DNA of 64,000 bases from an uncultured Candidatus Sumerlaeota bacterium (GCA_964389675.1 CAYMEV010000002.1:62001-126000), one strand, 5' to 3'. Shown: positions 4,102-38,132, numbered from the stretch's first letter. Notes: generated by a model from the letters alone, not told the origin. Numbers and translations: made by a program.

Positions 4102-7100
4102 TCAGAATTCAGACATCCTTGTCTTGTATTCAAACCTCGGTGCAGCTTCGTATAGATCCTTATAAGCATCAAATGCTCTTTGTTTATGCTGTTCCTTCCG
4201 GGAGATTTTCCAGAGCTGATAATATATTTCAGCCTTGATATCATCATCACTGCAGTCATCAATCAGGCCCTCCAAAGCTGAAATGGACTGTTGAGGTTCT
4301 GTATATGATAATATTTTGTATTTTTCTATCATGGCCTTTGCCATTTCCTCGGGTAAAGAGGCTTTTTCAGCTGTTTCAATGGCTCTCAGGTTTAATTCGG
4401 ATGCCTTACTTATGTTCCCAAGTTCTATAAATATGCTGGTTTTCATGTTTAGGTACCGGCAAAGACTGTTTTGGAGCTTTAGATTAGAAAAAGTATTGAT
4501 GGCTTTATCTATATATTCTAATGATTTCTGGTAATCTTTTTTAATATAATATACATTTGCTATATTGCCTGCTGATATTCCATAAGCTCTTAGGTCCCCG
4601 ATCTCTTCTGAAATATTTCTATGAATTTCAAAACATTCCAGTGCCTGCTGAAATTTGCCCTGGTCAAAATATACATATCCCATATTGGTAATGGCGAATC
4701 CAAATCTCATCCTGTCATTTATTTCCTGATAAAGATTTACAGATTCTTCATAATTTCCCAAAGCCTTTTCAAATTGTCCCTGGTTATAGTAAATATTACC
4801 TATACTTCCCACTGCAAATCCTTGCCCTGTTTTGTAACCTATTTCCTTTGATATCTCCAAGAGCGTTTCAAAGCATTCCAGTGCTTTCTCATTGTCATTC
4901 CTGAATAAATAAATGTTTCCAAGGTTCCCTAAAGCATTTGAGCGGCCCCTCTTATCACCGATCTCCTTTGAAACATCATGGGATGTCGAGTAATGCTTGA
5001 GTGCTTCTTCAAAGCTACCCATCACATAATATATGTTTCCCAGACTGCACATGGCATTCTTGTACTCTCTTTTGTCCCCTATCTCCAGAGTTATTTTCCC
5101 GTAATCCTGAAAATATTTCAGTGCTTTTTCATAATCACCAAGAATATAATACACATTGCCTATATTGCCCAAAGCTATGCCATAGTCGCGTTTTTCTTCA
5201 CTTTTCCTGCTTAATTCCTTATAGGATTCATAGTATTCAAGGGCCATTATGTAATCGGATAGAAGATAGTATACATTGCCTATTTCGTTAAGAATCGAGG
5301 AATAATTTGCCCTGTCGTTTAGTTTTATGCATAATTCCTTGTATTCTTCATAATAGCTAATCGCTTCCTTAAGATGTGATTGCTCAAAATAATAGTTGCC
5401 GATATTATAGATTGTTTCCGCATAATCATTTGAGATCTGATTATTTTTAAATATCCCCAGAGACTTATCTAAAGCTTCTTTGGCTTTTTCATAGTATCCC
5501 TGCTTGATGTTAATGCTTCCGGAGATATTATATGCCTTCCCATGGAGTCTCAAGAAGCCTCTTGTTTCTGCACTTTCAATTATTTCCTCCAATAATTCTG
5601 CCGCTGCATCCCATCTGCTCAGGGCTTCAAGCGATATAGCTTTTTTTAGCAGTATTTGAAGCCTTTTTTCTTTATTGTTTTCGGGGATAATTTGTAATAC
5701 TGTATCATACAGCCTCAGGGCCTTCTCATTAAAATGCCTGTCCTGGCTTGAATCTGCGCATTCTGTATAATATCTTACTGCTTTATCTTTTACGCCGGCT
5801 TCCATGAAGTGGTATGCTGTTTCTTCCAGAAGAGAATTCCGGAACCTGCCGGGCAATGTCTCAAGGTATTCCCCCAGGAGCCGGTTCAATAAATTTTTAT
5901 CATCAATAGTCTGCTTTACTATATCCTTAAGGAAGGTGCTGCTGAAGTTTACTGCCATGTAATTATGAAACCTTATGAACTTTAGTATCTCCTGATTTTC
6001 CAGAAGTATGAGAATTTTGCTGAGATCTTTGTTATAGAGGTTCCTGAGCAGGCTGTTAAGCATTTCAAAGGATAGATCAACCCTTAGAAGGGACATTATA
6101 TGCAGCACCAATCTTATCGTCCTGTCCGATAATACACCTTCCATTCTCTTTCTGGCTATTTCCTGAATATTTTTGTTTATATCTTTATTTTTCAGGTATT
6201 TATGGGATTTCCAGCAGCCATTCTCTTTATAAATGAAGCCTTCTGCAATTAGCGATTTTATCAGTTCTGAAAGGAATAACGGTTTACCTCCTGCCATATC
6301 CCGAATCTGGCCTGCTGAATCTTTTATGCTTTCGTCGATGAAGTGCCTGCCAAAAATATTTATTAAATAATCTCCAGTACCCTGCTCATCCAGTTCTTTG
6401 AGAGTACAGGCCTCTGTCCTTCTGTTTATCAGAATCTCAGTAATATTATTATTTTCACCCATCATATCTTCACTAAGGCTTGCAAAAAATGCAAAATTTT
6501 GTCCATTATTATCCCGGAACTCTATTTTTTCGAGAAGGCGTTTTAATATTCCGGCAGAACCTTCCTCCAGCCATTGAAGGTTGTATATTGCTATTACTGC
6601 TTTCCTGCTGAGTGAAGAAAAGAAATCGAGAAAATAATCAGATATTCTTTCAGTGATAATTTCCCTTAAAGCTTTCTGGTTTTTTATGCTCAGATCATGG
6701 TATCCTCTAAAAAGTGGATGGTCTGGTAAAAGGTATCTCAGATGGGTTGAATATTCCAAAAGAAGGCCCTGCCCTGAATTTGATACCATGTTCTGCAATA
6801 AATCTGATATTAAACAATATTCTGTTACTTCGCCTTCTGAACAGGATGCTTCATAAAAATCAATATTATTTGACCTGCAGTACCTTCCAAATTCCTTAAA
6901 AAGCCTGGTCTTTCCTATGCCGGCTGGCCCGGAATAAATATGGAAATTTATGCTCTTTTCATCAAGTCTGGATTTCATCCCGGCAAGGTCGTTTTGCCTG
7001 TCTGCAAAACTGCATCCTAAAGTATAGCTCTCTCTTGTCTGGGACGTTTCTATCTCAAATGATGTATTGAAAAATTTATTAATATCATCAATTATCTCTG

Positions 7101-7893
7101 TGCTGTTTCTATGCCTTTCAGCTTTATCAAAAGAAAGGAAACGCCTTAAAATTTGGCGGCATCTGTCGTCCTTCAAAAGACTTAATGCATTCTCCCGGTG
7201 TTCCTCAAATACCTTCTGTTCTTTCATTACATTTATATCAAAATTCTCATGGCTGATATTGTCTGCAAGGTAGTACTTCCTTCCTGCAATCATTTCATAA
7301 AGCAATACTCCAAGCGAAAAATAGTCTGAGCTGAAGCTGATATCCCCTGTAAGAGACTCAGGGGCTTTATAAAGCAGTTCTTTACCTGGCTTTCCTTCAA
7401 TCAGATACCTGGTTTCAGAAAGACCGAAATCAAGAAGTACAGGGATATTATTTGAAATTATTATATTTGAAGGACTGATTTCACTGTATAATAGATCTCT
7501 GCTGTGTATAAAATCCAGGGCCCTTGAAACCTGTGCGGTTATTTGCAGGATCTCCACCAGATGAAGCTGTTTATGTGAAGATATAATATTTCTTAGCGAT
7601 TCACCCTCGAGGTATTCCATTACAATAAAGAAGCTCTCATCCATAATGCCAAAATCATATATCTGCACTATATTTGGATGTTTAAGGTTTTTGATTATAT
7701 CATATTTTTTATTTATATCCCTTAAGGTAAGTCCTTCCGCGCTATTAAATTCTGACGGATTTATGATCTTTAAGGCAAAGGAAGCATTATCCATCAGGAG
7801 ATCATGGACAAGATAGAGATACCCATTGCTTCCTGTGCCAATAGTGCTGACGGGCTGATACCTGCAATTTATTACGGGAATTTTGTCTTCCAT
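4102..7893 (-). CDS. Protein kinase-like (probable pseudokinase) - STAND/AAA_16 NTPase - TPR repeat protein
   Basis: Kinase motifs GTGSNG, ALK, HPNIV, DFG, APE. Walker A GPAGIGKT; GGKPLFL (GxP). At least nine 40-aa TPRs (GNIGNVYY). Confidence 0.85.
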   Translation of the reverse strand: MEDKIPVINCRYQPVSTIGTGSNGYLYLVHDLLMDNASFALKIINPSEFNSAEGLTLRDINKKYDIIKNLKHPNIVQIYDFGIMDESFFIVMEYLEGESLRNIISSHKQLHLVEILQITAQVSRALDFIHSRDLLYSEISPSNIIISNNIPVLLDFGLSETRYLIEGKPGKELLYKAPESLTGDISFSSDYFSLGVLLYEMIAGRKYYLADNISHENFDINVMKEQKVFEEHRENALSLLKDDRCRQILRRFLSFDKAERHRNSTEIIDDINKFFNTSFEIETSQTRESYTLGCSFADRQNDLAGMKSRLDEKSINFHIYSGPAGIGKTRLFKEFGRYCRSNNIDFYEASCSEGEVTEYCLISDLLQNMVSNSGQGLLLEYSTHLRYLLPDHPLFRGYHDLSIKNQKALREIITERISDYFLDFFSSLSRKAVIAIYNLQWLEEGSAGILKRLLEKIEFRDNNGQNFAFFASLSEDMMGENNNITEILINRRTEACTLKELDEQGTGDYLINIFGRHFIDESIKDSAGQIRDMAGGKPLFLSELIKSLIAEGFIYKENGCWKSHKYLKNKDINKNIQEIARKRMEGVLSDRTIRLVLHIMSLLRVDLSFEMLNSLLRNLYNKDLSKILILLENQEILKFIRFHNYMAVNFSSTFLKDIVKQTIDDKNLLNRLLGEYLETLPGRFRNSLLEETAYHFMEAGVKDKAVRYYTECADSSQDRHFNEKALRLYDTVLQIIPENNKEKRLQILLKKAISLEALSRWDAAAELLEEIIESAETRGFLRLHGKAYNISGSINIKQGYYEKAKEALDKSLGIFKNNQISNDYAETIYNIGNYYFEQSHLKEAISYYEEYKELCIKLNDRANYSSILNEIGNVYYLLSDYIMALEYYESYKELSRKSEEKRDYGIALGNIGNVYYILGDYEKALKYFQDYGKITLEIGDKREYKNAMCSLGNIYYVMGSFEEALKHYSTSHDVSKEIGDKRGRSNALGNLGNIYLFRNDNEKALECFETLLEISKEIGYKTGQGFAVGSIGNIYYNQGQFEKALGNYEESVNLYQEINDRMRFGFAITNMGYVYFDQGKFQQALECFEIHRNISEEIGDLRAYGISAGNIANVYYIKKDYQKSLEYIDKAINTFSNLKLQNSLCRYLNMKTSIFIELGNISKASELNLRAIETAEKASLPEEMAKAMIEKYKILSYTEPQQSISALEGLIDDCSDDDIKAEIYYQLWKISRKEQHKQRAFDAYKDLYEAAPRFEYKTRMSEF
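4465..5544 (-). repeat. Nine tandem 40-aa (120-bp) TPR units
   Basis: Recurring YG.ALGN(I/L)GN(V/I)YY..GD(Y/F)EKAL.....EIGD at exact 40-residue period. Confidence 0.85.
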
Positions 7894-8129
7894 ACCATAA
7901 CCGGTTAATATAATAAACTATTATCAGAAAATACTATTTAAATCAAATATTAACACCACTTTTTAAAGAGGGGCAGAATTTTCAGGAAAAATAATGCCTC
8001 ATAAAAGCCATGCTGAATATAAAGGTATAAATATAAAAATATTAAGATATGAATTCTTTTCTTTTTTAAATTTGATGGTAATCTAAAAATAATATATCTG
8101 AATAAAAATATTAAAAAGGGGGATTGCAC

Positions 8130-8534
8130 ATGAAAAGACCTATAAATGCTGCCCTGCTGATTGGATTAATAGGTATATTCACCATTGGGTCAAGCCTTTC
8201 TGTAAGCCTTTACCGGGTATTCTGGGGAGATGATGATATTTATTGGACTCCTCAGTCAATGAGTCTGCCATACAAAGAATCAAGTGATTATTTTCAGATC
8301 TATATAGGAGATGAGCTCTTTAGCAATTATCTTGCAAAAGGATATCTAACAGGCCTTGATGATGAGGGCAATCAGTTTAAAATCGTCGAAGATGATATAA
8401 GCTTCCGCCTGAACAACTGGAATAAGACACAGGCTGTCATATTGAAGACAAGTGTCCTGACAGCCTTCCTTTTCGGGATAAGCGTATCCTGTTTTATCAT
8501 TGGCATTCTTAAGGTCTTTAAGAATAAGGACTGA
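8130..8534 (+). CDS. Hypothetical two-TM membrane protein
   Basis: ATG at 8130 after an AAGGGGG RBS. N- and C-terminal hydrophobic helices flank a soluble loop (DIYWTP...RLNNW). Confidence 0.65.
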   Translation: MKRPINAALLIGLIGIFTIGSSLSVSLYRVFWGDDDIYWTPQSMSLPYKESSDYFQIYIGDELFSNYLAKGYLTGLDDEGNQFKIVEDDISFRLNNWNKTQAVILKTSVLTAFLFGISVSCFIIGILKVFKNKD

Positions 8535-8702
8535 TACAGGTTTACTCAATAGATCATAATCAAGCTGATCTGAAAGGTACTAATTTTATATAATATTTTG
8601 ACCGGATCCTGCTGAGGTTTTAATATTAAATCATTCTCCAGGTTTGAGTAAAGTGCCGGATTTTCTTAAGGAGAGGAATGTTTTACATGGCCGGGTGAAA
8701 TT

Positions 8703-10919
8703 ATGATAAGGTATAAAAGATCTATAAAAAGAGATTTGGCTTTTTTGCTTGTCTTAATAGTATTTTTGACTTCCGGTATTATTATCCTGACCTCCTACTA
8801 TTATATTAAGGAAAAAAGACTGGACTCACTGAATAAAGAGGCTGATGAGCTGATAAACCAGCTCTCTGATTCAGTAGCCTTTTATGTATGGAACTATGCT
8901 GAAAACGATATATCAAATACAGCAGCTTCTTTTCTGGTGATAGATGAAATTGTCTATATTCGTATTGCATACGATAATCATGAGGTTATTTTCAATAAGC
9001 AGGGAAATTATGAAGACAATTTGATAAATAGAAGCAGGTCGATCAGATATGCTGGGGACCAGGATATAGGTACAGCAGAGATATCTGTTTCAAGATATAA
9101 GATTTTCCGTAAAAACCGTGAATATTTGTATATGGCGGTCATGCTTACTGCAATTATTCTAATAATTATTATATTCTCGATTAAAGTCCTGCTTTCAGTA
9201 TATATGGAGAAGCCCCTGAGAAATCTGCAGGTGGCAATAAACGAGATTGCTTCCGGGAATTATGAAAAAAGGCTGAAGCCGGTATCCCAGCTGGAGATAA
9301 AGGGTATCATAGCAGATGTTAATAATATGGCTCAGATGATATCCGAGAGGGAGTCAGGCCTTAGGCAGGTCCAGGATTATCTGAAGAATATTATTGAAGC
9401 CATGGCATCAATAATAATCACCATTGATGGAGAATATATAATAAGGCAGGTAAATTCAAGAGCCTATCAGCTAATACAATTCAGAAGGCATGATATAACC
9501 GGTTCAGTACTTTTTGAGGAGACTTCCTTCTTTGATAAATACAGAGATATAATCCAAAAGGTCAATGAAGAGCTTATAATTCAGGAATTCCGCCGTGAAA
9601 ACATTGTGGATTCAAGCCAGGCAAGCAGGTATTATGATATCATGTTCTATCCTTACAGCAATATTGCCAAAGGGGGTGTTGTAATAAGGATTGATGATGT
9701 AAGCAGAGCGGTGGAGAACGAAGAAAAGATAAAGAAAATCCAGAAAATGGAGGTCTTAAGCAGTCTTACAGGCGGATTAGCTCATGATTTCAACAATATT
9801 TTAGGGGGGATTATTGGAGCTGTCTCATTGCTTGAGTGGGAATTAGCGAATGAAAAACATATAGACCAGACAGCATTGAAGGAAAATCTCGAGATTATAC
9901 AGTCCTCTGCAAACAGAGCGGAAAATATTGTTACACATCTTTTAACGCTGGCGAGAGAACATCAATTTGAATTTCATGCTGCAGACCTCAATGAGATCGT
10001 AAAACAGGTTCATGATATCTGTCAGAATAGCCTTGAGAAGAATATCAAGGTACAGGCAACCTATGCTGATGAAAAAGCACTGGTAATGGCAGACCAGAAT
10101 CAGATCGAACAGGTGCTTCTAAACCTCAGCATCAACAGCAGCCATGCTATGACAATAATGAGAAAGGAAGGAGAAGCGCAGGGGGGGGTTCTTTGTTTTT
10201 ACATCGAAAAGATCCATGCTGACCGGACTTTTTGTGATTACCATCCTGAAGCCACTGGCAATGATTATTGGCTTGTCTCAGTCCAGGATACAGGCGTCGG
10301 CATTGAGAAAAAAATTATTCCAAAGATATTTGATCCTTTCTTCTCCACTAAAAAGAAGATAAAGGGTACAGGATTAGGCCTTTCAATGGTCTATAATATT
10401 ATCACCGAGCATAAGGGATTTATAGATGTGTATTCAGAATGCGGAGTTGGTACCACTGTGAACATTTATCTTCCTGCTGTGGCGCAGAAAGAGATTGTCA
10501 GTACAAACAATAAGGAAAAGGATACCCTGAAACTGAAGGGATCCGTCCTTCTGTGCGATGATGAGGAAGCTGTCAGGAAGATAGGCTCTGAGATGCTGAA
10601 AGCCTGCGGGATAGATGTTATAACAGCCAGGGATGGCTTTGAAGCTATAGAATTATTCAAAAAACATAAAGCAGAAATCAAAGCTGTGATTATTGATGCA
10701 ATAATGCCCGGTATTACAGGGGATCTGGTGGTCAGGGAGCTTATGGAAATTAAAAGAGATATAAGGATAATTGCAAGCTCGGGATTCCGGAGAGATAATC
10801 ATGTAGAAAATATACTAGCCTATGATGGTGTGGTTTTTCTAAGTAAACCGTACACACTTGACAAAATGAAGGAGGCTTTATTAAAAATTTTCAGAAACGA
10901 TACAGGAAAGGGGTTTTAA
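8703..10919 (+). CDS. Hybrid sensor histidine kinase (TM-sensor-HAMP-PAS-HisKA-HATPase-REC)
   Basis: H-box GLAHDFNN, N-box QVLLNLSINS, DTGVGI, GTGLGL, and a receiver domain with DDE and D-x-x-MP. Confidence 0.93.
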   Translation: MIRYKRSIKRDLAFLLVLIVFLTSGIIILTSYYYIKEKRLDSLNKEADELINQLSDSVAFYVWNYAENDISNTAASFLVIDEIVYIRIAYDNHEVIFNKQGNYEDNLINRSRSIRYAGDQDIGTAEISVSRYKIFRKNREYLYMAVMLTAIILIIIIFSIKVLLSVYMEKPLRNLQVAINEIASGNYEKRLKPVSQLEIKGIIADVNNMAQMISERESGLRQVQDYLKNIIEAMASIIITIDGEYIIRQVNSRAYQLIQFRRHDITGSVLFEETSFFDKYRDIIQKVNEELIIQEFRRENIVDSSQASRYYDIMFYPYSNIAKGGVVIRIDDVSRAVENEEKIKKIQKMEVLSSLTGGLAHDFNNILGGIIGAVSLLEWELANEKHIDQTALKENLEIIQSSANRAENIVTHLLTLAREHQFEFHAADLNEIVKQVHDICQNSLEKNIKVQATYADEKALVMADQNQIEQVLLNLSINSSHAMTIMRKEGEAQGGVLCFYIEKIHADRTFCDYHPEATGNDYWLVSVQDTGVGIEKKIIPKIFDPFFSTKKKIKGTGLGLSMVYNIITEHKGFIDVYSECGVGTTVNIYLPAVAQKEIVSTNNKEKDTLKLKGSVLLCDDEEAVRKIGSEMLKACGIDVITARDGFEAIELFKKHKAEIKAVIIDAIMPGITGDLVVRELMEIKRDIRIIASSGFRRDNHVENILAYDGVVFLSKPYTLDKMKEALLKIFRNDTGKGF

Positions 10920-10948
10920 TTTTCTAATACAATAAATGAGAGAAATAC

Positions 10949-13156
10949 ATGAGCTTATTTAAATACAGATCAATAAAGAAGAATCTTGCCCTCTCCATTA
11001 TTATAATGGCATTTATTACATCATCCATCCTGATTATACTGAATTATCTCTATTCCACCCGGAAAGAGCTTATTGACCTGAAACAGAGGACCCATGATAT
11101 AGTTGACCAGCTGGGAAATGCAATAGTGCTTCATATCTGGAATTATGAAGATTCTGAAGTTGAAAACATAATAAATTCATACTTTCAGTACGAAGAGATC
11201 ATTTATATAAGAGTTATATCAAATGAAAAGAAAATACTGAAGTCAAGGCAGAAAAGTTCAAAAGAAGGTTTTGTGAAAGAAAGCAGAAATCTTTTTTATG
11301 ATAATACCGAGATTGGAGAAATTGAGATAAGATGCTCGAAGGAACCTTTAAAAAGAGGGCAGATGATCCTGCTGTACTGGCTTTTTGGTTTTACAATAAT
11401 CCTGTTGATCATAATTGCATTTTCAATCCTGGCTGTTATGAGATATCTTCTTGAAAAACCTGTCAGCAGCCTGTGCAATGCTGTTAAAAATATTGCAGCA
11501 GGAGCATATGACGGCAGGCTTGAATCAGTGCCGCAGAAAGAGATAAACCAGATAATAAAAGGCGTGAATACACTTGCTGAGAAAATAAGCACAAGGGAAA
11601 AAAACCTGGTTGAGATACAGGAATTTATGAAAAACATAATCGAGGCGATGCCCTCAATTATAATATCTGTCGATAGAGATTATAAAATAAGACAGATGAA
11701 TTCAAAAGCAGGGAAATTGCTAAATACGGATTCAGGTGCTGAAGAAGGCGATAATCTTTTTGCAGTTTCAGAATTCTTTGAAAAATACAGAAGTAAAATC
11801 GAAAAATCCAATATCGAGCTTACAATCGAGGAAATACCAAGGATACTCTTTTATGACAAATCTAATGAACAGACCTATTACAGTATGACCATATACCCGC
11901 AGGGGAAAAGGATGCCTGAAGGCACAGTAATAAGAGTGGATGATATTACAGTTGCTGTTGAGAATGAAGACAGGCTTCAGATAATACAGAAGATGGAGAC
12001 CATCGGGAGTCTGGGGGCTGGGCTTGCTCATGATTTTAACAATACCCTCATGGGGATAACCGGGTCCGCGTCTCTGATAGATTTTAAACTTTCAAAGAAT
12101 ATGCTCCCTGACAGAGAATCGCTGTCAGAGAATATAGGGATCATTAAAAAATCCGCAAAAAGAGCTGAAAGCATTGTCAAACAGCTATTAACACTGTCCA
12201 AGGAGCAGGATTATGAGTTCTGCCCAGTTGACCTGAACTCTTTAATAAAATATATATATAAATTCTGTGCTACCTCCTTTGAAGAAAATATAACCATAAT
12301 GCCAGATTATCATCATCAAAAGGCTCTGGTACTTGGTGACCCAATTCAGCTTGAGCAGGTTCTGCATAATTTGAGCCTCAACGCTTATCATGCTATGACT
12401 ATTATGAGAAAACCTGGTGAAGAAAAAGAAAATGTTCTTTATTACCACCTCGACAGGATATATGCAGACAATCAGTTCAGAGAAGTGCACCCTGAAGCTG
12501 AGGAAGGCTATTACTGGGTTATTTCAGTGCAGGATACAGGCATAGGCATAGACACAAGCCGTATATCAAAAATTTTTGAACCTTTTTATACTACGAAGAA
12601 AAAGGGAGAGGGTACAGGGCTCGGCCTATCCATGGCAAGCAATATAATAAGAATGCACAGGGGATTTATAGATGTGTACTCAGAACCGGGAACCGGTACA
12701 ACTTTCAAGGTCTTTCTGCCGGAATACACCGGAGATGAATCAAAAGCTACAGAAGCGGTGGATATGGGAATTAAACCAGGAATGGGTCATATACTCTTAT
12801 GTGATGATGAGGAGATCATAAGAAAAATAGGGTCAAGGATGATTGCATCACTGGGATTTGAGGTAATACTATGCAGCACTGGGAAAGAAGCCATTGAATC
12901 ATTCAGGAAGAGCGCGGAAATAATAGATATTGTGATATTGGATGTCAATATGCCTGATATGCCGGGAGAAAGAGTTTTTATGGAATTAAAGAAAATAAAA
13001 AGAGGCATAAAGATTATTATCAGTTCCGGAATATCTCATGATGAAATGGTTAAAAAAAGCCTGTCAATGGGAGCTTTAGCATTCTTAGCCAAGCCATATA
13101 CTATAAGAAAACTTGCAAATATTCTGAAAAAGACAATGAAAGATCTTCGGCAATAA
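10949..13156 (+). CDS. Hybrid sensor histidine kinase, tandem paralog of the upstream gene
   Basis: Same architecture: GLAHDFNN, DTGIGI, GTGLGL, receiver LDVNMPD. Confidence 0.93.
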   Translation: MSLFKYRSIKKNLALSIIIMAFITSSILIILNYLYSTRKELIDLKQRTHDIVDQLGNAIVLHIWNYEDSEVENIINSYFQYEEIIYIRVISNEKKILKSRQKSSKEGFVKESRNLFYDNTEIGEIEIRCSKEPLKRGQMILLYWLFGFTIILLIIIAFSILAVMRYLLEKPVSSLCNAVKNIAAGAYDGRLESVPQKEINQIIKGVNTLAEKISTREKNLVEIQEFMKNIIEAMPSIIISVDRDYKIRQMNSKAGKLLNTDSGAEEGDNLFAVSEFFEKYRSKIEKSNIELTIEEIPRILFYDKSNEQTYYSMTIYPQGKRMPEGTVIRVDDITVAVENEDRLQIIQKMETIGSLGAGLAHDFNNTLMGITGSASLIDFKLSKNMLPDRESLSENIGIIKKSAKRAESIVKQLLTLSKEQDYEFCPVDLNSLIKYIYKFCATSFEENITIMPDYHHQKALVLGDPIQLEQVLHNLSLNAYHAMTIMRKPGEEKENVLYYHLDRIYADNQFREVHPEAEEGYYWVISVQDTGIGIDTSRISKIFEPFYTTKKKGEGTGLGLSMASNIIRMHRGFIDVYSEPGTGTTFKVFLPEYTGDESKATEAVDMGIKPGMGHILLCDDEEIIRKIGSRMIASLGFEVILCSTGKEAIESFRKSAEIIDIVILDVNMPDMPGERVFMELKKIKRGIKIIISSGISHDEMVKKSLSMGALAFLAKPYTIRKLANILKKTMKDLRQ

Positions 13157-13172
13157 AATCTGATTTCTGACC

Positions 13173-24157: not shown

Positions 24158-24175
24158 AAATAATTTCTCCTTTTT

Positions 24176-27957: not shown

Positions 27958-27992
27958 ATAAAGATCATTTTTTTAAGGAGGTTAACATACTA

Positions 27993-28475: not shown

Positions 28476-28480
28476 TTAAT

Positions 28481-29071: not shown

Positions 29072-30093
29072 CAATCCGGAATACTGAGAGGTATGATCCT
29101 AAATACCTGTTTGTGTCAGGTGTGGTCAAAAGCAAGGAGCTTGAGCTTATAAGCGCCTCAAAACTCGAGAGAATGAAAATGAGCAATTCTCTGTACGATT
29201 TTCTCTCAATCCTTGGAGAAACAGTCTACAGCGATATAGTATCCCTCGCAAAGACAAGCATCCTTTTTGAAGAGCATCTAACAGAAAAGCTTTTTTCTTT
29301 TGAACTGGAGCTCCTCTCTCTGATAAAAGATGATAATCTGAAAAAGGTTTTCATGGTCGATTATGATTTTCATAATATAAAACTTATGCTTATGAGCTTT
29401 TTATCAGGTAAAGCTATGCCTGAAGATGGGACCTCTCCAGGTTTTCTAAGCATTGATATGCTGAAGAACTCAATACATGAAGATGACTATTCTATGTTGC
29501 CTGAACTGATTAAGGAGGCCATTACCGGAGCAAAAGCGATATTTGACCTTGAAAAGAATATGCAGAAGGCTATGTTATTTCTGGATAAAAACAAGTATGA
29601 GATCAAACTTGTTATCTCGAACAGGCTTAAAAGCGATTTTCTCAGGGACCTTGTGAAAACAGAAATAGATCTTTTTAATATTGCTTTTCTATTCAGGGCA
29701 AAGATATTAAAGCTTGATCATGCCATGTTTGATGAACTTCTATTAGAGGATGGGTATATAGATAAAAAACAGTTCCTTGATCTTTTGGATTCGTCTCCTG
29801 ATGCAATTGCAGATGCATTTAAGGCCTCTGACTATGCAGACGGAATTCATGAGGCCATAACAGAGTCTAAGGAAAAACAGAGCATTTCATCTTTTGAAAC
29901 CTATATCAGAAATATTATTCTTGAAAAATCAAAGGAGTCCTCCAATTTTATATTCGGGTTTGAGCCATTAGTGGGCCTGATTTATGCAAAAAGACATGAA
30001 ATATACAATCTTAAGTCTATTTACATAGCAAAGGAATATCAATTATCTGAAGAAGAACTCAGTATTAGACTAGGAGATGCCTATGCAAGCTAA
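29068..30093 (+). CDS. atpC: A/V-type ATP synthase subunit C (d)
   Basis: YDFHNIK, EIDLFN, FGFEPLVG...EIYNLK. Confidence 0.9.
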   Translation: MTIRNTERYDPKYLFVSGVVKSKELELISASKLERMKMSNSLYDFLSILGETVYSDIVSLAKTSILFEEHLTEKLFSFELELLSLIKDDNLKKVFMVDYDFHNIKLMLMSFLSGKAMPEDGTSPGFLSIDMLKNSIHEDDYSMLPELIKEAITGAKAIFDLEKNMQKAMLFLDKNKYEIKLVISNRLKSDFLRDLVKTEIDLFNIAFLFRAKILKLDHAMFDELLLEDGYIDKKQFLDLLDSSPDAIADAFKASDYADGIHEAITESKEKQSISSFETYIRNIILEKSKESSNFIFGFEPLVGLIYAKRHEIYNLKSIYIAKEYQLSEEELSIRLGDAYAS

Positions 30094-30400
30094 GATTGCA
30101 GCAATTGGAGATGTAATTTCTGTAATGCCCTTTAAGGCTTTTGGGGTGGATACCTACAGCTATAAAGCAGAAGAAATGAATGATGAAGTTCTTGAAACAA
30201 TAGTTTCAAAAGGCTATAGAGTGATATATATTACAGAAAAACTTGCAGCAAAAGTACTGGAAAAGATTGATGAATATGATATAAATCCCGCTGTTTCAAT
30301 TACTCTGATTCCTGACAGCAAGGGCTCTATAGGGCTTTCCAGCAGAAAGCTGAGGGATATTATTATCAGAGCAATTGGAGCAGATACGCTTACAGAATAA
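30083..30400 (+). CDS. atpF: A/V-type ATP synthase subunit F
   Basis: KIAAIGD...FKAFG...IYITE...IP...RAIGAD. ATG at 30083 lies 6 nt after AGGAG. Confidence 0.92.
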   Translation: MQAKIAAIGDVISVMPFKAFGVDTYSYKAEEMNDEVLETIVSKGYRVIYITEKLAAKVLEKIDEYDINPAVSITLIPDSKGSIGLSSRKLRDIIIRAIGADTLTE

Positions 30401-30416
30401 GAATGAGGTTAGAGAT

Positions 30417-32192
30417 ATGATAGAAGTTGGTGATATTATAAAGGTCTCAGGACCGCTTGTAGTCGCTAAAAATATTAGAAAATCAAAGATGTATGATGTC
30501 GTAAGGGTCGGAAAGCAGAAGCTTCTGGGTGAAATAATTGAACTCAGAGGTGACCGCGCATCAATACAGGTTTATGAAGAGACAGCCGGCCTCGGGGTAG
30601 GTGATCCTGTAGAAGCTACAGGGGAAGCGCTTAGCGTTGAGCTTGGCCCCGGCCTGATTATGTCCTTTTATGACGGGATACAAAGACCCATAGATGAGAT
30701 TGCTGAAAAGGTTGGAAGCTTTATTACAAGAGGTATTTCCATCCCCGGATTATCAAGGGAAAGAGTATGGAGCTTCAAAGCTATTGCCAAAAAGGGAGAT
30801 AAGGTATCAGGGGGTGACATTCTAGGCGAGGTTGAAGAAACGCCTCTGGTTATTCATAAGATAATGGTTCCTCACGATGTTTCAGGTGAGCTTGCCGAGA
30901 TAAAGGAAGGGGAATTCAAGGTCACGGATAAAATTGCTGTCATAAAGACCGAGGATGGAAATGCAGAGCTTACCATGATCCAGAGATGGCCTGTCAGACT
31001 TCCAAGGCCCTATAAAGAGAAACTGCCGCCTACAGAACCTCTTGTTACTGGAACAAGGGTAATTGATACATTCTTTCCGGTGGCAAAGGGTGGTACTGCA
31101 TGTATTCCAGGTCCTTTCGGAAGCGGTAAGACTGTTGTCCAGCACCAGCTCGCAAAATGGTCGGATGCTGATATTATCGTTTATGTAGGGTGCGGAGAAA
31201 GAGGCAATGAAATGACTGATGTTCTGATGGAATTCCCTGAACTGAAAGACCCGAAAAGCCAAAGGCCTCTCATGGAAAGGACTGTCCTGATTGCAAATAC
31301 CTCCAATATGCCTGTTGCTGCGAGAGAAGCATCAATCTATACAGGTGTTACAATAGGTGAGTATTTCAGGGATATGGGGTACAGTGTCGCTATCCTTGCA
31401 GATTCAACATCGAGGTGGGCGGAAGCCATGAGGGAAATATCAGGGAGGCTTGAAGAAATGCCTGGAGAAGAAGGGTATCCTGCTTATCTGGGGACAAGGA
31501 TTGCTGAATTTTACGAAAGGTCCGGAAGGGTAAAAACTTTCGACAGGGATGAGACCATCGGTGCTTTAACTATTATAGGGGCTGTATCCCCTCCCGGAGG
31601 AGATCTTTCTGATCCTGTCGTACAGGCAACCCTGAAGGTAGTAAAAGTTTTCTGGGCACTAAAGGATAAGCTTGCTTACCAGAGGCACTTTCCTGCAATT
31701 TCATGGCTGGATTCATACTCTCTTTATTATGACTCCATAGAAAAATACCTTAATGAAAATCTTGGTGAAGACTGGATTAAAATGAGGGATGAAGCTATGG
31801 CAATTCTGCAGGAAGAGGATAAACTGCAGGAGATCGTAAGGCTTGTGGGCATGGATGCATTAAAGGCATCTGACAGAATGCTTATGGAAGCAGCAAAATC
31901 TATCAGGGAAGATTTTCTTTACCAGAATGCTTTTCATCCTGTTGATTCATATTGCCTTATGAATAAACAGAAAGAAATTATGAAGATAATAATGGAATAT
32001 TATGATATTTCTGTAAAAGCCCTGGAAACAGGTATTGAAATTGAGGATATCCTTAATATAAAAAGCAGAGAAGGAATAGCAAAAGCAAGGCTTATTGCTG
32101 ATAATGAAACAGATAAATTTGCAGAGCTGAGAAAATCAATAAGCAGCGAGCTTTCAGAACTGCAGAAAAAAATTAATAAGGTGGAGAGTTAA
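30417..32192 (+). CDS. atpA: A/V-type ATP synthase catalytic subunit A
   Basis: [10 protein letters not shown]-loop [27 protein letters not shown]. Probable ATG at 30417. Confidence 0.97.
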
Positions 32193-32194
32193 AA

Positions 32195-33589
32195 GTGGCT
32201 CTTAAAAAAGAATATACAACAATACAGGAAGTAGTAGGACCATTGGTGCTGATGGACCAGGTCTCAGATGTAAAATATGATGAATTAGTCGAACTTCAGG
32301 CCCCAGATGGAGAGATAAGGATGGGCAAGGTTCTTGAGGTTATGGACGATAAGGCTTTAATTCAGCTTTTTGCAGGTACATCGGGTGTTAATATCTTCGG
32401 GTCCAAGGTAAAGTTTTTAGGAAAGGGCCTTGAGATAGGGCTATCACCGGATATACTCGGCAGGGTATTCGACGGGCTCGGAAGGCCTATTGACAATGGC
32501 CTTGAAATAATACCTGAAGAAAAAAGGGATATAAATGGGTTGCCTTTGAACCCCTTCAGCAGGGATTATCCTTCTGAGTTTATACAGACAGGCATTTCAG
32601 GGATTGATGGAATGAATACTCTTGTCAGGGGGCAGAAACTGCCAATTTTCTCATCATCAGGCCTGCCTCATTCAAAGGTTGCAGCCCAGCTTGTGAGACA
32701 GGCTAAGGTAAGGAGCTCATCAGAGGCATTTGCAATTGTTTTTGCAGCAATGGGCATAACTTATGAGGAATCATACTTCTTTATAAACAATTTCAAAGAA
32801 ACAGGGGCAATTAACAGGACAGTGCTTTTTGTAAATCTGGCAGATGACCCCACCATTGAAAGAATCGCTACTCCAAGAATGGCCCTCACTGCAGCAGAAT
32901 ACCTTGCTTTTGAAAAGGATATGCATGTTCTTGTGATCCTTACAGATATGACAAACTACTGCAATGCCTTGAGGGAGGTATCTGCAGCCAGGAAAGAGGT
33001 GCCTGGAAGAAGGGGCTATCCGGGATATCTTTACACTGACCTGTCAACAATATACGAAAGAGCTGGCAGAGTAAAGGGCAAGAAGGGAAGCATTACCCAG
33101 TTCCCCATACTTACAATGCCTGAGAATGACAAGACGCACCCGGTCCCTGATCTTACAGGTTATATTACAGAGGGGCAGGTCATCCTGTCCAAGGAACTGC
33201 ATAAAAAGAACATTTATCCACCCATTGACCTTATGCAGTCTCTTTCCAGGCTCAAGGATAAAGGCATCGGAGAGGGCAAAACCAGAGAAGACCATGCTGA
33301 TGTATATAACCAGCTTTCAGCAGCATATGCCAGAGGCCTGGAAGCACAGGAGCTGGAGGTAATCCTCGGGGAGGCAGCGCTGTCGGATATTGACAAGATG
33401 TATTTAAAATTCACAAGAGTTTTTGAAGACAAGTTTATCAGACAGGGCGAATATGATGACAGAAATATTGATCAGACTCTTAACATAGCCTGGGAACTTT
33501 TCAAACTGATTCCGGAATCAGAGCTTAAAAGGATCAAGCCTGAACTGATAGATAAATATCTCCATAAAAAGAACGAGGATGGAAAATAG
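32195..33589 (+). CDS. atpB: A/V-type ATP synthase subunit B
   Basis: [45 protein letters not shown]. Confidence 0.97.
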
Positions 33590-34221
33590 TGATTATTGAA
33601 GGCATATCAGCAACAAGAATGAATCTCCTCCAGCTGAGGAGAAAACTGACTACTGCCATAAAAGGCCATAAGCTCCTTAAGGATAAACAGGATGAACTTA
33701 TGAGAAGATTTCTGGAACTTATAGAAGACACTAAATCGAAAAGAAAACTGGTCCAGGAATCCATGGCTGAAGTCCTAAAAAGGTTTCTGCTGTCCTATAT
33801 GCCCCTTGCAAAAAAGAATGTCGACATAAGCCTTTCATTCCCTCAGGAGAGCCTGCAGTTAAAAGAGACCCAGGGATTTATTATGAATATGAAAACCTAT
33901 GACCTTGAGATTGTAAATAGCGGTGATATAAGGTCTTACAGCCTTCTTGATACCAACAGTGACTTTGACATATGTATCCTTGCCTTAAACAGGCTTTTTA
34001 AGGAGCTGATAGAGCTTACACAGCTTGAGAAAAAGCTGGTTATGCTTTCATATGAGATTGAGAAGACAAGAAGACGGGTGAATGCACTTGAGTATAAAAT
34101 GATACCGAATATTGAAGATACTATAAAAATGATTAATTTCAAGCTTGATGAACGCGAGAGGTCAAATCTTACAAGGCTTCTTAAAATAAAGGACATGATG
34201 AAAAATAAATCAGGGATCTGA
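33589..34221 (+). CDS. atpD: A/V-type ATP synthase subunit D
   Basis: ATRMNL...GHKLLKDKQDEL, EIEKTRRRVNALEY. Confidence 0.95.
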   Translation: MIIEGISATRMNLLQLRRKLTTAIKGHKLLKDKQDELMRRFLELIEDTKSKRKLVQESMAEVLKRFLLSYMPLAKKNVDISLSFPQESLQLKETQGFIMNMKTYDLEIVNSGDIRSYSLLDTNSDFDICILALNRLFKELIELTQLEKKLVMLSYEIEKTRRRVNALEYKMIPNIEDTIKMINFKLDERERSNLTRLLKIKDMMKNKSGI

Positions 34222-34275
34222 TTATTTTATTGACATATTTTACAATTTTATTAAAGATTTTAATCTGTATAAGAT

Positions 34276-34348
34276 GCCGAGGTAGCTCAGACGGTAGAGC
34301 AGGGGACTGAAAATCCCTGTGTCGGTGGTTCGATTCCGCTCCTCGGCA
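34276..34348 (+). tRNA. tRNA-Phe (GAA)
   Basis: GCCGAGG/CCTCGGC acceptor stem, D-arm GCTCAGACGGTAGAGC, anticodon loop CTGAAAA, T-loop GGTTCGATTCC. Confidence 0.97.
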
Positions 34349-34577
34349 CCTTTTCATAAAAGCCGCACAATTTTCAGCCTTCAATCCCTTATTTAATCCG
34401 GCCATGGTTCTGTTTTTCTTAAGTATTGATTTGCTGATTAAAATTTATTTTATTCTTTATTCAAAGAATATATACCTGTAATATGAATCATATTTGCATT
34501 ATATTTGGGTATTGATTTCAGCAGGAAAAGTTTTTATAATAAAGACAGCTTTTTTTTCTTTGTACTATAGGGTTGAT

Positions 34578-37500
34578 ATGAACAGCAGTTTTGAAAAAGG
34601 CACTATCATAAATAACAGGTATATTGTAAAGGATTTAATCGGCCAGGGCGGCATGGGTTATGTATACCTTGTGCAGGATACATTAAAAGCAGGATCAGAA
34701 ATAGCACTTAAAACAATTAAGGGAAGCATGTCAGATAAGAATGAGCACCTTGATATATTCAAGCTTGAATTTGAGATAATGACGAGACTGAAGCATCCGA
34801 ATCTCGTAAATGTCTATAATTTCGGTTATGACGATCAAAAAGACTGTTATTATATCACAATGGAGTATCTTAAAGGCAAGACACTGAAAAGCCTGCTTAT
34901 GGAGGATAATGTAATAGATGAAAACAGGGCTGTGGATATCATGGTAAATTTATTGAGAGGCCTCGAGTTTATACACAGCAGGAATATTATATCCCGTGAT
35001 GTAAAGCCCTCGAATATACTGGTATCCGATAGAAGTGTAAAACTGATGGATTTTGGCATTTCTGATATAGGATCAGTGGATCAGAAGAAGATCAAAGGTT
35101 CTCTCCTTTATATTGCGCCGGAGATCCTGGTTGGAGAAGCTGACCACAGGATAGATATCTATTCTGCAGGCATTGTATTCCTCCAGATGCTTACAGGAAA
35201 AATACTTTACAAAGAGACAAAGGCTACCTCCATACTTGATATCATTAAAGATGAATATGTTTACCTGTATAACCAGTCAGTAGCCCTGGAGGCGCTGAAT
35301 GACAGAAAGGTAAAGGATATTATCAACAGAATGATTGCCTATAACAAGGAGGAGAGATACAATACCTGCTCGGAGGTAATAGTAGATATCAATAAACAGC
35401 TCGGATACTCTTATGAGATAGAAACACCTGAGACCAAAGATGCCTATGTATCAGGTGTAAATTTTGTCAACAGGGCCGAGGAATATGGATGGCTTAAAGA
35501 AAAGATATTCTCTTTGCCCGACAGGGGAAAGATGTTTCTGCTGATGTCCAGTATTGGATTGGGCAAGTCCAAGATATTTAATGAGCTGAAAAAATACTGT
35601 CAGCTTAATAATATTATCTTTTGTGAATGCGAATGCTTCAAGGATAATGTAAAGCCGTACCATCCAGTATCAGAATTGCTTTCACAGATAATGCTTTATT
35701 CTTCAAGAGAACTGAATAACAAATACCATAAGTATCTGAATAAGGTCACAGATTATAAACCATTTGAAGAAGAAACCGATATTTCAGTTGATTTATACAG
35801 GGAGATTGAAATACTTCATCAGGCTATAATAAATTTTCTGCTTGATTATGGGAACAGTACCGGCTATACAACTGTCATCTATGTCAATAATATACAGTGG
35901 ATAGATGAGGGCAGCTTCCAGATACTGCATGAGTTGCTTAACCATATTTCAAAAAAAGAGAATAAAGAGAATAAACTGAGAATCTATGCAAGCGCAAGGA
36001 AAGAGGAGTCCAACATGATCAGGGACAGACTCGATGGAATGGAAAAGGACAGATGCCTGGATATCCGGACATTAAAACCATTTAATCTTTCCGATATCAT
36101 GAACTATTTTGAGAATGTTTTCGGAAGCTGTAATATCGATAGATCCTTAAGTTCATCAATAGGAAAAATAAACGGCAGGATAGGGGGAAATCCCTATTTT
36201 TTAGGTGAATTCATACGTTTTTCCCTTAAAGAAAGAATTATTGACAAACCTGGAGCAAAGTGGATTCTTACAGAACCTGTTGAAAAGGCAAATGTCCCTG
36301 ATAATCTCAAAGACATACTTGCAAAAAGGCTATATCCAATGCTGAAAGACCAGTACCATCTGAGATTTATGAATGTTTTTTCCCTTATAAGGTTTTCCAT
36401 GTCCTATAATGATATTTACTCCTTTTTTTCCGGCATTGAAAAGCCAATAATTAGAAACAGGCTTCAGGAACTGGAAAATCACGAAATTGTCAAGTCAGAG
36501 AAAATCGGTAATAATATATTTTACAGCCTCTCTCACGAACTGATCAGGAAAATTGTCTCTTCATCAATACCTGACAGGGCTGATCTGCATAATTTTATAG
36601 GAAACAAGATCGAAGCAGTATTCCGGGATAGAATAAAAGGCTATATGCCTGAACTTGCATATCATTTTCAGGAGGGCGGGGATAAGGAAAAGGCGATCTA
36701 CTATCTGAAAAAGTCAGGCGATGCTCAGAGAAACAAGTATTTTAATATTAATGATATTCTGAAATATTACAATGAAGCTCTCAGGCTCTCGAAGGAATTC
36801 TATGGCAAAGAAAGCTATGAAACTGCGCTGTTATACTCAGATATCGGAATTATATATTATGAAGAGGGTGATTTTGCCGCAGCTACAGATAACTGCAAAA
36901 TTGCAGCCGAGATTATTAAAGGCTTATACGGGGAAGAAAGCGATAAATTTGCAGCTGTACTGAATAGAATGTGCCTTATAAGCCTCAAGATAGGGGAATA
37001 CAAAAAAGCGCTGATATTTGCCAATAAGGCAAATGATATACAGCTGAAAATATTTGGGGATAATAATATACATGTAGCCAGAACATATAATAATATTGCC
37101 CAGATATACCTTAAAACAGGCGATTATCTTGATGCACTTGCTTATGCAAGGAAATTCCAAAAAATATACCTTGGCATTTACGGCCAGGACAGCAGGGAAA
37201 TGATTACACCCATAAACCTTATGGGTATTGTCTATTTTGATATGGCTGAGCTGGATAAAGCCAAAGAATGCTTTTTTAGGGCAATGAAGCTTCATAATAT
37301 ATACTTTGGAAAGGATGCAGTTGAAAGCACAACATCATACAATAATATTGGGCTGGTTCTGCTGGAACAGGCACATTACCAGGAAGCCCTTTTTTACCTG
37401 AAAAAAACTCTGAAAATACTAAAGGCTTTCTACAAGAATCCCCATGTCGATATAGCAAAATGCTACAATAATATGGGCATAGTGTATCACGACCTGAAAG

Positions 37501-38132
37501 AAAATGAAAAGGCATTCAAGTATTACAGAAGGGCTTTGAGGATTAGAAGGAAAATTTACGGTGAAATGCATACCAGGACTGCAGGTTCATATAATAATGT
37601 AGGAATTATCTACTCAGAAAGAGGCGATTATAAAAAAGCCCTGAAGTACTATAAGAGATCCCTTGAGATACAAAAGGCAATATTCGGGCAGTTTCATGCC
37701 AGTGTAGCAAAGGCCTATAATAATATTGGCCATCTCTATTATCAGATGAAAGAATACGATAAGGCCATATCTTTCATCAGTAAAGCAATGGATATAAGGA
37801 AAAAGGTATATAATAATAAACATACGGACCTTGCAAGCGGCTATCATGGTTTTGCGTCCATTTACAGGGCTTTGGGCGATCTGAACAAGGCCATAGAGTA
37901 TATACATATGGCACTGGAGATATACCTGAAATTTTATGGTGAGAGGCATGCTGATGTCGGTCATTCCTATATTATACTTTCAGATATATTCGAGGAACTC
38001 AATAACCATGAAAAAGCCTACTATTATATTGAAAAGGCAACAAAAATATATAAGCAGGTATTCGGTGTCAAACATATAAACTATATAGAAGCAGAAGATA
38101 AAATGAGAAAACTTGAAAGCATGCTTAACTGA
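34578..38132 (+). CDS. Ser/Thr protein kinase - STAND/AAA_16 NTPase - TPR repeat protein
   Basis: GQGGMG, IALK, SRDVKPSN, DFG, GSLLYIAPE. Walker A-like SSIGLGKS; GGNPYFL. Ten 42-aa TPRs. Probable start MNSSFEKG at 34578. Confidence 0.88.
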   Translation: MNSSFEKGTIINNRYIVKDLIGQGGMGYVYLVQDTLKAGSEIALKTIKGSMSDKNEHLDIFKLEFEIMTRLKHPNLVNVYNFGYDDQKDCYYITMEYLKGKTLKSLLMEDNVIDENRAVDIMVNLLRGLEFIHSRNIISRDVKPSNILVSDRSVKLMDFGISDIGSVDQKKIKGSLLYIAPEILVGEADHRIDIYSAGIVFLQMLTGKILYKETKATSILDIIKDEYVYLYNQSVALEALNDRKVKDIINRMIAYNKEERYNTCSEVIVDINKQLGYSYEIETPETKDAYVSGVNFVNRAEEYGWLKEKIFSLPDRGKMFLLMSSIGLGKSKIFNELKKYCQLNNIIFCECECFKDNVKPYHPVSELLSQIMLYSSRELNNKYHKYLNKVTDYKPFEEETDISVDLYREIEILHQAIINFLLDYGNSTGYTTVIYVNNIQWIDEGSFQILHELLNHISKKENKENKLRIYASARKEESNMIRDRLDGMEKDRCLDIRTLKPFNLSDIMNYFENVFGSCNIDRSLSSSIGKINGRIGGNPYFLGEFIRFSLKERIIDKPGAKWILTEPVEKANVPDNLKDILAKRLYPMLKDQYHLRFMNVFSLIRFSMSYNDIYSFFSGIEKPIIRNRLQELENHEIVKSEKIGNNIFYSLSHELIRKIVSSSIPDRADLHNFIGNKIEAVFRDRIKGYMPELAYHFQEGGDKEKAIYYLKKSGDAQRNKYFNINDILKYYNEALRLSKEFYGKESYETALLYSDIGIIYYEEGDFAAATDNCKIAAEIIKGLYGEESDKFAAVLNRMCLISLKIGEYKKALIFANKANDIQLKIFGDNNIHVARTYNNIAQIYLKTGDYLDALAYARKFQKIYLGIYGQDSREMITPINLMGIVYFDMAELDKAKECFFRAMKLHNIYFGKDAVESTTSYNNIGLVLLEQAHYQEALFYLKKTLKILKAFYKNPHVDIAKCYNNMGIVYHDLKENEKAFKYYRRALRIRRKIYGEMHTRTAGSYNNVGIIYSERGDYKKALKYYKRSLEIQKAIFGQFHASVAKAYNNIGHLYYQMKEYDKAISFISKAMDIRKKVYNNKHTDLASGYHGFASIYRALGDLNKAIEYIHMALEIYLKFYGERHADVGHSYIILSDIFEELNNHEKAYYYIEKATKIYKQVFGVKHINYIEAEDKMRKLESMLN
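36822..38081 (+). repeat. Ten tandem 42-aa (126-bp) TPR units (kinesin-light-chain/TPR_10-12 type)
   Basis: Recurring A.SYNNIG..Y...GDY.KAL.Y..KAL.I...(I/V)(Y/F)G..H at 42-residue period. Confidence 0.85.

Follow-up and report, generated by a model that had tools for sequence, protein, structure and literature searches.

Two kinase-STAND-TPR genes of an uncultured Candidatus Sumerlaeota bacterium belong to an old, expanded family of probable signalling receptors

We analysed a stretch of 64,000 nucleotides (the window; GCA_964389675.1 CAYMEV010000002.1:62001-126000) from an uncultured Candidatus Sumerlaeota bacterium. It corresponds to C2:62001-126000 in an assembly of 58 contigs and 3.57 Mb (the source genome, G000), which was compared with a congener (G001). 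Two of its genes, 4102-7893(-) and 34578-38132(+), encode the proteins P0001 and P0002, in which a protein kinase domain, an NTPase module and an array of tetratricopeptide repeats (TPRs) follow one another. We concluded, with a probability of about 0.78, that both are soluble, cytoplasmic signal-transduction ATPases of the STAND class, from the MalT/PknK-like subfamily; in each, the N-terminal Hanks-type Ser/Thr kinase serves as output and the C-terminal TPR solenoid receives the input. The family to which they belong is large, old and enriched in this lineage, and signalling proteins of its kind are already known. Most likely the two act as ordinary receptors in intracellular signalling rather than as a new immune system. 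A preliminary description of this stretch had seen in them a lineage-expanded family resembling nucleotide-binding leucine-rich repeat receptors (NLRs), diversified by exchange of the sensor module and possibly an undescribed immunity or signalling system. Its architecture and its expansion were borne out, whereas sensor exchange, novelty and immunity found weak support or none.

Architecture of the two proteins

In a BLASTP comparison the two proteins were collinear over their whole length, with 334 of 1186 positions identical (28%, E 4e-123), a similarity far beyond chance. Every motif of the kinase-linker-NTPase scaffold listed in the preliminary description was present in both. The scaffolds were closer to each other (341 bits, 31%) than P0001 was to the best extra-genus homolog retrieved, P0004 (152 bits, 26%). 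Both proteins matched Pkinase, AAA_16 and, strongly, TPR_12 in Pfam. TPR_MalT scored 67.2 bits in P0001 and 63.8 bits in P0002 (cut-off 45 bits), so that the two curated profiles of a MalT/PknK-like protein were found in each, AAA_16 marginally. Among the 33 full-length members in the two genomes, the conserved motifs were the linker [YF]ExETxxT[KR]xSY..G..F..R..E, Walker A GxxGxGK[ST], QW[IL][DE]EGS, GGxPxFLxE, LExxEI and AYH[FY]. No transmembrane-like segment was found in P0001 or P0002, whose highest 19-residue hydropathy values were 1.18 and 1.35, and no NCBIfam model covered either protein, all matches lying far under their cut-offs.

The NTPase module was assigned to the nucleotide-binding oligomerisation domains (NODs) of STAND proteins from an alignment of the 33 NODs, an AlphaFold2 (AF2) model of the P0001 NOD and a Foldseek search against the PDB. 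PMC4381067 describes the NOD as a nucleotide-binding domain (NBD) followed by a helical domain (HD) and a winged-helix domain (WHD). This succession of folds was present in the model (predicted local distance difference test, pLDDT, 86.1; predicted template modelling score, pTM, 0.76). The first structural match was MalT (8bob_C, E 2e-10, TM 0.57), the second full-length Apaf-1 (3sfz, 8.6e-10) and the third PH0952 (6mfv_A, 2.8e-9). The top alignments spanned approximately 410-440 columns, at 12-15% sequence identity for MalT and PH0952, and later matches included Cdc6/Orc, CED-4, Avs3 (8dgc_A, rank 11) and plant NRC proteins. The matches to MalT, Apaf-1 and PH0952 supported the effector-STAND-repeat architecture proposed earlier. 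STAND NTPase features, as reportedly set out by Leipe et al. in 2004, include a Walker A of the form GxxxxGK[ST] and a Walker B of the form hhhhD[DE]; further STAND motifs are named hhGRExE-like (N-terminal) and GxP (in the helical domain). Walker A was found in P0001 and P0002 and was kept in 30 of the 33 members, the exceptions reading GKD twice and GKR once. The sequence F[AV][DN]R..[DE] preceded the P-loop in the manner of the hhGRExE-like motif, and its Arg and the Pro of GG.P.FL.E were invariant (33/33). Downstream of the Walker B region, W[IL][DE]EGS was retained.

The TPR arrays of the two proteins fell into different classes, as the preliminary description had stated. BLOSUM self-correlation peaked at an offset of 40 in P0001 (0.82, against -1.09 at offset 42) and at an offset of 42 in P0002 (1.14, against -1.09 at offset 40). 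A hidden Markov model (HMM) of the repeat unit recovered the clear units given in table 1, along with weaker ones, which in P0001 began at aa 719; the C-terminal part of P0001, about 130 aa, had no 40-aa period. The 42-aa type profile TPR_10 matched P0002 with 171.9 bits in five stretches and P0001 with 83.6 bits and no separate stretch. With its 42-residue period and its TPR_10 match, P0002 carries TPRs of the kinesin-light-chain type.

The kinase domains were complete in most of the family. The VAIK Lys, the HRD Asp, the catalytic Asn and the DFG Asp were kept in 31 of the 33 members, and P0002 also had the alpha-C Glu. The exceptions were P0001 and its ortholog in the congener (L051). In P0001, the catalytic loop reads YSEISPSN (Asp to Glu, loop Lys to Ser), the alpha-C Glu is replaced by Lys and the Gly loop is GTGSNG. 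The loop [YHSC][RG]DxKPxN was present in 31 of the 32 other members; L051 reads YRDLKPAD, with KPAD instead of KPxN, DFW instead of DFG and Asn in place of the alpha-C Glu. When 101 relatives from a public library were added to the 33 members, a key catalytic residue was missing in 7 of 134 kinases, P0001 among them. The kinase, NOD and TPR modules of P0001 and L051 were 44, 43 and 58% identical, the TPR region being the most conserved; in 11 of the 13 remaining ortholog pairs the kinase was. Such a pattern is what one would expect if the kinase is dead and under relaxed constraint while the sensor still works. P0001 and its ortholog are probably pseudokinases, which is the specific new point of this analysis. 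Because catalytic residues were lost in both while the P-loop and a well-conserved TPR region were kept, P0001 is most likely a non-catalytic sensor or scaffold, which might, for example, co-assemble with an active paralog or titrate it.

Table 1. Positions of the two genes, their domains and an upstream site, counted from the first nucleotide of the window
Feature	Position	Strand	Evidence
P0001 gene, 1263 aa: degenerate kinase, STAND NOD, 40-aa TPR array, helical C-terminal end of about 130 aa	4102..7893	-	Open reading frame (ORF), Pfam, positional ortholog L051
P0001 kinase-like domain, aa 1-289, probably a pseudokinase	7027..7893	-	Pkinase 125.6 bits; losses of catalytic residues
P0001 NOD, aa 290-714: F..R..D, Walker A GPAGIGKT, degenerate Walker B (IYNLQWLEEGS), GGKPLFLSE (GxP), winged helix, arm	5752..7026	-	AAA_16 and ATPase_2 matches, motifs, AF2, Foldseek
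P0001 TPR sensor region, aa 715-1263; 8 clear 40-aa units, aa 827-1133 (nt 4495-5415)	4105..5751	-	Period 40, unit HMM, TPR_12 192.8 bits, TPR_MalT 67.2 bits
P0002 gene, 1184 aa from ATG 34578: intact kinase, STAND NOD, 42-aa TPR array	34578..38132	+	ORF, Pfam, ortholog L060
P0002 Ser/Thr kinase domain, aa 1-289, key catalytic residues complete	34578..35444	+	Pkinase 169.8 bits; IALK, alpha-C Glu, SRDVKPSN, DFG
P0002 NOD, aa 290-715: Walker A SSIGLGKS, Walker B region VNNIQWIDEGS, GGNPYFLGE	35445..36722	+	AAA_16 34.3 bits, motifs, NOD alignment
P0002 TPR sensor region, aa 716-1184; 10 units of 42 aa, aa 747-1166 (nt 36816-38075)	36723..38129	+	Period 42, unit HMM, TPR_10 171.9 bits, TPR_NPHP3 98.4 bits
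Promoter-like site before P0002, TTGATT-17-TATAAT, 10/12 of consensus	34512..34540	+	Consensus match only

The open frame of P0002 spans 34494..38132(+) and offers the starts TTG 34494 and ATG 34578. The ATG is the likelier start, because the promoter-like site lies downstream of the TTG, and the ortholog in the congener matches the kinase from the first residue of the ATG product. The promoter-like site itself is weak evidence, since the 5.5 kb scanned contained 31 sites of this sort, where 21.1 would be expected.

Family expansion and inheritance of the repeat classes

With the scaffold as query, 35 matches were obtained in the source genome, 19 of them full-length family members; two family fragments at contig ends may represent one split gene. 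The congener contained at least 14 full-length members and fragments, and this genome-wide count of paralogs confirmed the lineage expansion that had been proposed. Several members stood in tandem: contig C8 carries three, separated by 76 and 242 nt, and C36 carries two, 39 nt apart. Five further, more distant kinase-STAND proteins were found in the source genome. A second family of approximately 28 proteins (1100-1500 aa), combining Guanylate_cyc, AAA_16 and TPR, was co-expanded there. Together the STAND genes amounted to 54 ORFs (53 genes if the two fragments are one), or 5.8% of the genome.

The collection of 199,900 species held one congener, and 39 other genomes that were compared share the domain level only. 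The P0001 NOD gave 18 matches in the congener and none in these 39 genomes at E 1e-10. The scaffold tree of 33 rows contained 14 sister pairs between the two species (12 of them starred), so that the expansion predates the species split. An exhaustive profile search of 1.84 billion representatives returned 2,676 proteins at E <=1e-30. Among the best 150 of these, 130 came from outside the two genomes, and almost all had a NOD beginning near residue 285, i.e. behind a kinase. In a FastTree phylogeny of 130 rows, the library relatives interleaved with the clades of the two genomes. A few of them carried source names (candidate division WOR-3, CSSED10-310), with annotation as 'tetratricopeptide repeat protein', 'diguanylate cyclase' or 'histidine kinase'.

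That one family of scaffolds bears two clearly distinct repeat classes would fit a repeated exchange of whole TPR arrays between scaffolds, which is how the preliminary description had the family diversify. On the scaffold tree, however, repeat class required 3 changes, the minimum being 2. The main 40-aa clade (20 rows; 100, starred) and a 42-aa clade (7 rows; 99, starred) were clean, and the outliers were the 42-aa pair C13/L062 and the 40-aa pair C5_101278/L061. The starred branches are compatible with the 42-aa class having arisen once; constraining all 42-aa members together cost 6.1 log-likelihood units, and the approximately unbiased (AU) test (19 rows, LG+G4) did not reject it (p-AU 0.073). 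Repeat class again followed the clades when 97 metagenomic relatives were added, and it was the same within all 14 ortholog pairs. For 12 of the 19 members in the source genome the best partner in the congener was the same for kinase, NOD and TPR, and 5 of the 7 discordant members had no partner in the tree. No recent TPR exchange or gene conversion between paralogs was found, since the best TPR identity between non-orthologous paralogs was 34%.

The wider superfamily offered more in favour of exchange. Both repeat classes occur in the cyclase-STAND family, where 3 of 27 members had 42-aa arrays. On the joint tree of kinase and cyclase NODs the effector split was clean (1 change; 100, starred), which speaks against free shuffling, but repeat class needed 5 changes there, and starred branches forced at least 2 of them within the cyclase family. 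In the superfamily at large, some modules have therefore probably been replaced. In the TPR tree of the 42-aa class, C13/L062 grouped with the cyclase arrays, apart from the other 7 kinases. The pair C5_101278/L061, which has 40-aa arrays (28% identical) but branches outside the main 40-aa clade, had a discordant best TPR match and was considered as a sensor swap. It was rejected, as the best TPR match of L061 is still C5_101278 and fast divergence explains the pattern equally well. Because class followed the clades, the AU test left a single origin standing, 12 of 19 members were concordant and the arrays were no more than 34% identical, the kinase family underwent at most one or two ancient class switches, before the species split. 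Our reading is that, far back in the history of the superfamily, arrays were replaced or changed their repeat period a few times, and that sensor exchange is not the current mode of diversification. The 40-aa and 42-aa classes are old subfamilies, inherited with their scaffolds. Incongruence between TPR and scaffold trees had been set beforehand as the test of exchange; the outcome was close to congruence, the result that counts against it, and we regard repeated shuffling as unlikely.

A more far-reaching idea, to which we give little credence, concerns the repertoire as a whole. The approximately 53 STAND-TPR genes, with their kinase and cyclase outputs, might be the main cytoplasmic sensing system of a deep-branching uncultured lineage and form a co-assembling NLR-like repertoire. 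The pseudokinase P0001 and its ortholog would then serve as sensor, adaptor or decoy, recruiting or restraining active paralogs in the manner of helper/sensor NLR pairs or of plant tandem kinase-pseudokinase partners, and some members might guard against phages or other non-self. The lineage comprises two species representatives, no other genome among the 39 compared being nearer than domain level.

Several observations were made on relatives of the two genes. One cyclase-family member lies at G000:C2:58458-61859, 141 nt ahead of the window, and others at approximately 27 further loci (L031-L050, L069-L072, L088). Most of these proteins have an N-terminal region of about 400 aa in which cyclase matches fall in two places (approximately aa 26-142 and aa 305-390), which suggests two cyclase-homology domains per chain. 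L081 (G000:C2:175021-180588) and L067 of the congener are members of 1855 and 1872 aa with GAF and HATPase_c after the TPRs; a single protein therefore unites a histidine-kinase module with a STAND switch and a Ser/Thr kinase. In the protein adjoining the C8 triplet, Pkinase matched in two stretches. Many other kinases of the source genome are coupled to receiver, NERD, PEGA or SpoIIE phosphatase partners. In the top-scoring library protein, P0122 (2385 aa), the NOD occurs in two stretches and a kinase match covers aa 1202-1479; either two family members are fused in it, or a pair of tandem genes was called as a single gene.

Genomic context and the question of immunity

The neighbours of both genes were housekeeping or envelope genes: a V-ATPase operon, tRNA-Phe, a methyltransferase with a PMT_2 gene, HD and GrpB genes and hybrid histidine kinases. 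Synteny with the congener was conserved at both loci. L051 is flanked, like P0001, by HD and GrpB genes and a small upstream ORF, and L060, like P0002, by V-ATPase D, tRNA-Phe and the methyltransferase. The tRNA-Phe gene (GAA, 34276-34350(+)) lies between the V-type ATPase operon (25945-34221) and P0002, and its equivalent beside L060 lies at 215-289. Because the same arrangement was kept in the congener, the tRNA gene is not a sign of a recently inserted island, and no integrase ORF was recognised at either locus.

This context bears on the suggestion that the proteins are NLR/Avs-like anti-phage receptors, in which the TPR region would recognise a phage protein, the NOD would oligomerise and the kinase would act as an abortive-infection effector through mass phosphorylation of host or phage proteins. 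The effector-STAND-TPR layout is that of Avs, Avs3 was among the structural matches, and PMC13581612 reports TPR-like sensors for most defence STANDs. Copy number is large, a tRNA gene adjoins P0002 and orthologs diverge fast: their modules were 28-78% identical, against 88% for V-ATPase A and 85% for a carbamoyltransferase, the two housekeeping proteins compared, three non-core neighbours being likewise low (62-70%). However, the TPR region was not consistently the fastest-evolving module, being more conserved than the NOD in 9 of the 14 ortholog pairs, and the sister family has cyclase outputs, which are typical of signalling. PADLOC, applied to 21 window proteins, gave 3 matches at E <=1e-8 (a mad2 methyltransferase, a separate kinase and the candidate family PDC-M51A). 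The mad2 match is generic and PDC-M51A lies more than 23 kb from both genes, so that neither is flanked by defence genes; PDC-M51A was the sole defence-candidate match in the scanned part of the window that was neither a kinase nor a generic methyltransferase. Among the 25 whole-protein PADLOC matches listed, of 37 and 36 for the two proteins, all were to kinase or TPR models, and the kinase models PD-T4-6, mad6 and MkoA matched the kinase domains by generic similarity. The NOD alone gave unrelated models, with best E values of 0.0013-0.044. Neither a match to a defence STAND model, nor a defence-type effector, nor a defence-island neighbourhood was found at the two loci. The terms Pkinase, kinase, Guanylate_cyc, cyclase and AAA_16 are absent from the seven text supplementary files of PMC13581612. 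With no defence neighbours, no NOD match better than E 0.0013 and synteny conserved between species, the immune role that the preliminary description had entertained is improbable.

A MADS-like pairing of the mad2 methyltransferase with mad6 kinases was also considered and rejected. The mad2 match reached 39.5 bits, and Pfam placed a generic SAM (S-adenosylmethionine) methyltransferase domain over the same region (aa 298-436); the NCBIfam matches of this protein, to the small-molecule methyltransferase models CpaM, BioC and UbiG, were weak and below cut-off. The MAD6 matches of the kinases reached 114-143 bits against a cut-off of 460.

Other genes of the window were recorded as follows. Directly downstream of P0002, at 38180-42108(+), the stop codon of the SAM-methyltransferase gene (493 aa) and the start of a gene for a PMT_2-family glycosyltransferase (815 aa) overlap; in the congener, a methyltransferase with 65% identity adjoins the P0002 ortholog as well. 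A 136-aa ORF (8124-8534(+)), divergent from P0001, gave no Pfam-scale, NCBIfam or PADLOC match, and a 48% identical stretch occurs at the same position beside the ortholog. Two tandem hybrid histidine kinases (8703-10919 and 10949-13156(+); 738 and 735 aa) carry HisKA, HATPase_c and a receiver, the first also HAMP. Their best matches in the congener were only 34-36% identical, so that rapid turnover in this lineage extends to sensor kinases generally. The separate PknB-like Ser/Thr kinase (57321-59501(+), 726 aa) has no NOD; it matched the Stk1/PknB model with 289 bits, below cut-off, and 31 PADLOC models. The PDC-M51A protein (61180-62586(+), 468 aa) matched with E 1.6e-14.

That P0001 is a functionless, decaying copy bound to become a pseudogene is hardly credible: it has lost the catalytic Asp, the loop Lys and the alpha-C Glu, its Walker B region is degenerate and its end branch in the scaffold tree (0.8) is the longest of its clade, but its frame of 1263 codons and that of L051 (1260 codons, same syntenic position) are intact, its TPR region ranks with the better conserved arrays among the 14 pairs (58% identity across 549 aligned residues), and Walker A, GxP and linker motifs are retained.

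Proposed mechanism and comparison with known systems

As signalling receptors, P0001 and P0002 would work by analogy with MalT, PH0952 and Apaf-1. At rest the NOD would hold ADP and be closed by the arm and the TPR region. A ligand (peptide, protein or metabolite) binding to the TPRs would lead to nucleotide exchange in the NOD, opening and multimerisation, which would gather the kinase domains for trans-autophosphorylation and the phosphorylation of downstream targets. PMC4381067 and PMC6468293 describe arm- and sensor-based autoinhibition, which served as the model for this scheme.

Several findings weigh against the assignment of the proteins to signalling STANDs of this kind. The AAA_16 matches were marginal (34.6 bits in P0001 and 34.3 in P0002, cut-off 32.6 bits). 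A profile search of PDB sequences with the NOD alignment retrieved Apaf-1 alone, at E 0.0021, which is why a fold search was needed to place the domain. The acidic pair of Walker B was absent from both proteins, which have YN (P0001) and NN (P0002); across the 33 members, Asp stood at the second position in 24 (ND in 14, DD in 7), and 7 had no acidic residue. ATP hydrolysis may thus be slow or absent in some members, with a switch cycle perhaps unlike that of MalT. The switch mechanism is drawn from homology, its ligand, nucleotide state, oligomer and substrates being predicted. To these are added the kinase matches in PADLOC, the five class changes on the joint NOD tree and the high divergence of orthologs, which fits rapid adaptation.

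We consider three things worth keeping: how large the STAND-TPR repertoire of this deep-branching genome is, how cleanly the subfamilies with 40-aa and 42-aa repeats are split, and the conserved pseudokinase P0001. The architecture is known, and few such proteins have been studied. With 19 kinase-output and approximately 28 cyclase-output STAND-TPR proteins, two repeat classes, a dead kinase and more than 100 metagenomic relatives, the family is a natural series that could address the ligands of TPR-STANDs in bacteria, the co-assembly of paralogs and the kinase readout of NOD oligomerisation. It also offers a correction, namely that an NLR-like layout, many paralogs and different repeats are not evidence of immunity or of sensor shuffling.

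Kinase-NOD-TPR proteins had already been named, so the system is not undescribed, as had been thought possible. The MalT subfamily of STANDs comprises bacterial transcription factors and Ser/Thr kinases such as PknK (PMC4381067, PMC6468293), and PknK is the sole kinase-output member named in the available parts of PMC4381067, PMC6468293 and PMC13581612. Like PknK of Mycobacterium tuberculosis (Rv3080c), to which they were likened by architecture and Pfam family only, P0001 and P0002 are soluble proteins in which a Hanks-type kinase at the N-terminus is followed by a NOD of the AAA_16 type and, at the C-terminus, by helical repeats (MalT-like TPRs), and the homolog P0066 bears the source name 'serine/threonine-protein kinase PknK'. 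They differ from PknK in their long, regular arrays of 40- or 42-aa TPRs, in their 19 full-length copies per genome and in the subfamily-specific linker ETxxT[KR]xSY, which was present in 1 of 10 aligned distant homologs (P0004). MalT of E. coli (PDB 8BOB, 1HZ4) and PH0952 of Pyrococcus horikoshii (PDB 6MFV) share the NOD fold (ranks 1 and 3) and a TPR-type sensor after the arm, but their effectors bind DNA (C-terminal LuxR-type in MalT, N-terminal ArsR-like in PH0952), whereas here the effector is a kinase. Avs (AVAST) and bNACHT proteins follow the same tripartite effector-NTPase-repeat logic, and Avs3 was among the fold matches. In contrast, their effectors are of defence type (nucleases, proteases and others) and lie in defence islands, while the present genes encode a kinase in a housekeeping, syntenic context and a NOD without a PADLOC match. 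The TOMM system kinase/cyclase fusion protein (NCBIfam TIGR03903) gave partial matches, of 129.9 bits to P0002 and 108.1 bits to the cyclase-STAND family over the cyclase-to-NOD region. These scores are far under the cut-off of 705.75, so that neither belongs to TIGR03903, and the partial matches indicate that kinase and cyclase outputs on AAA_16 STAND scaffolds have already been catalogued.

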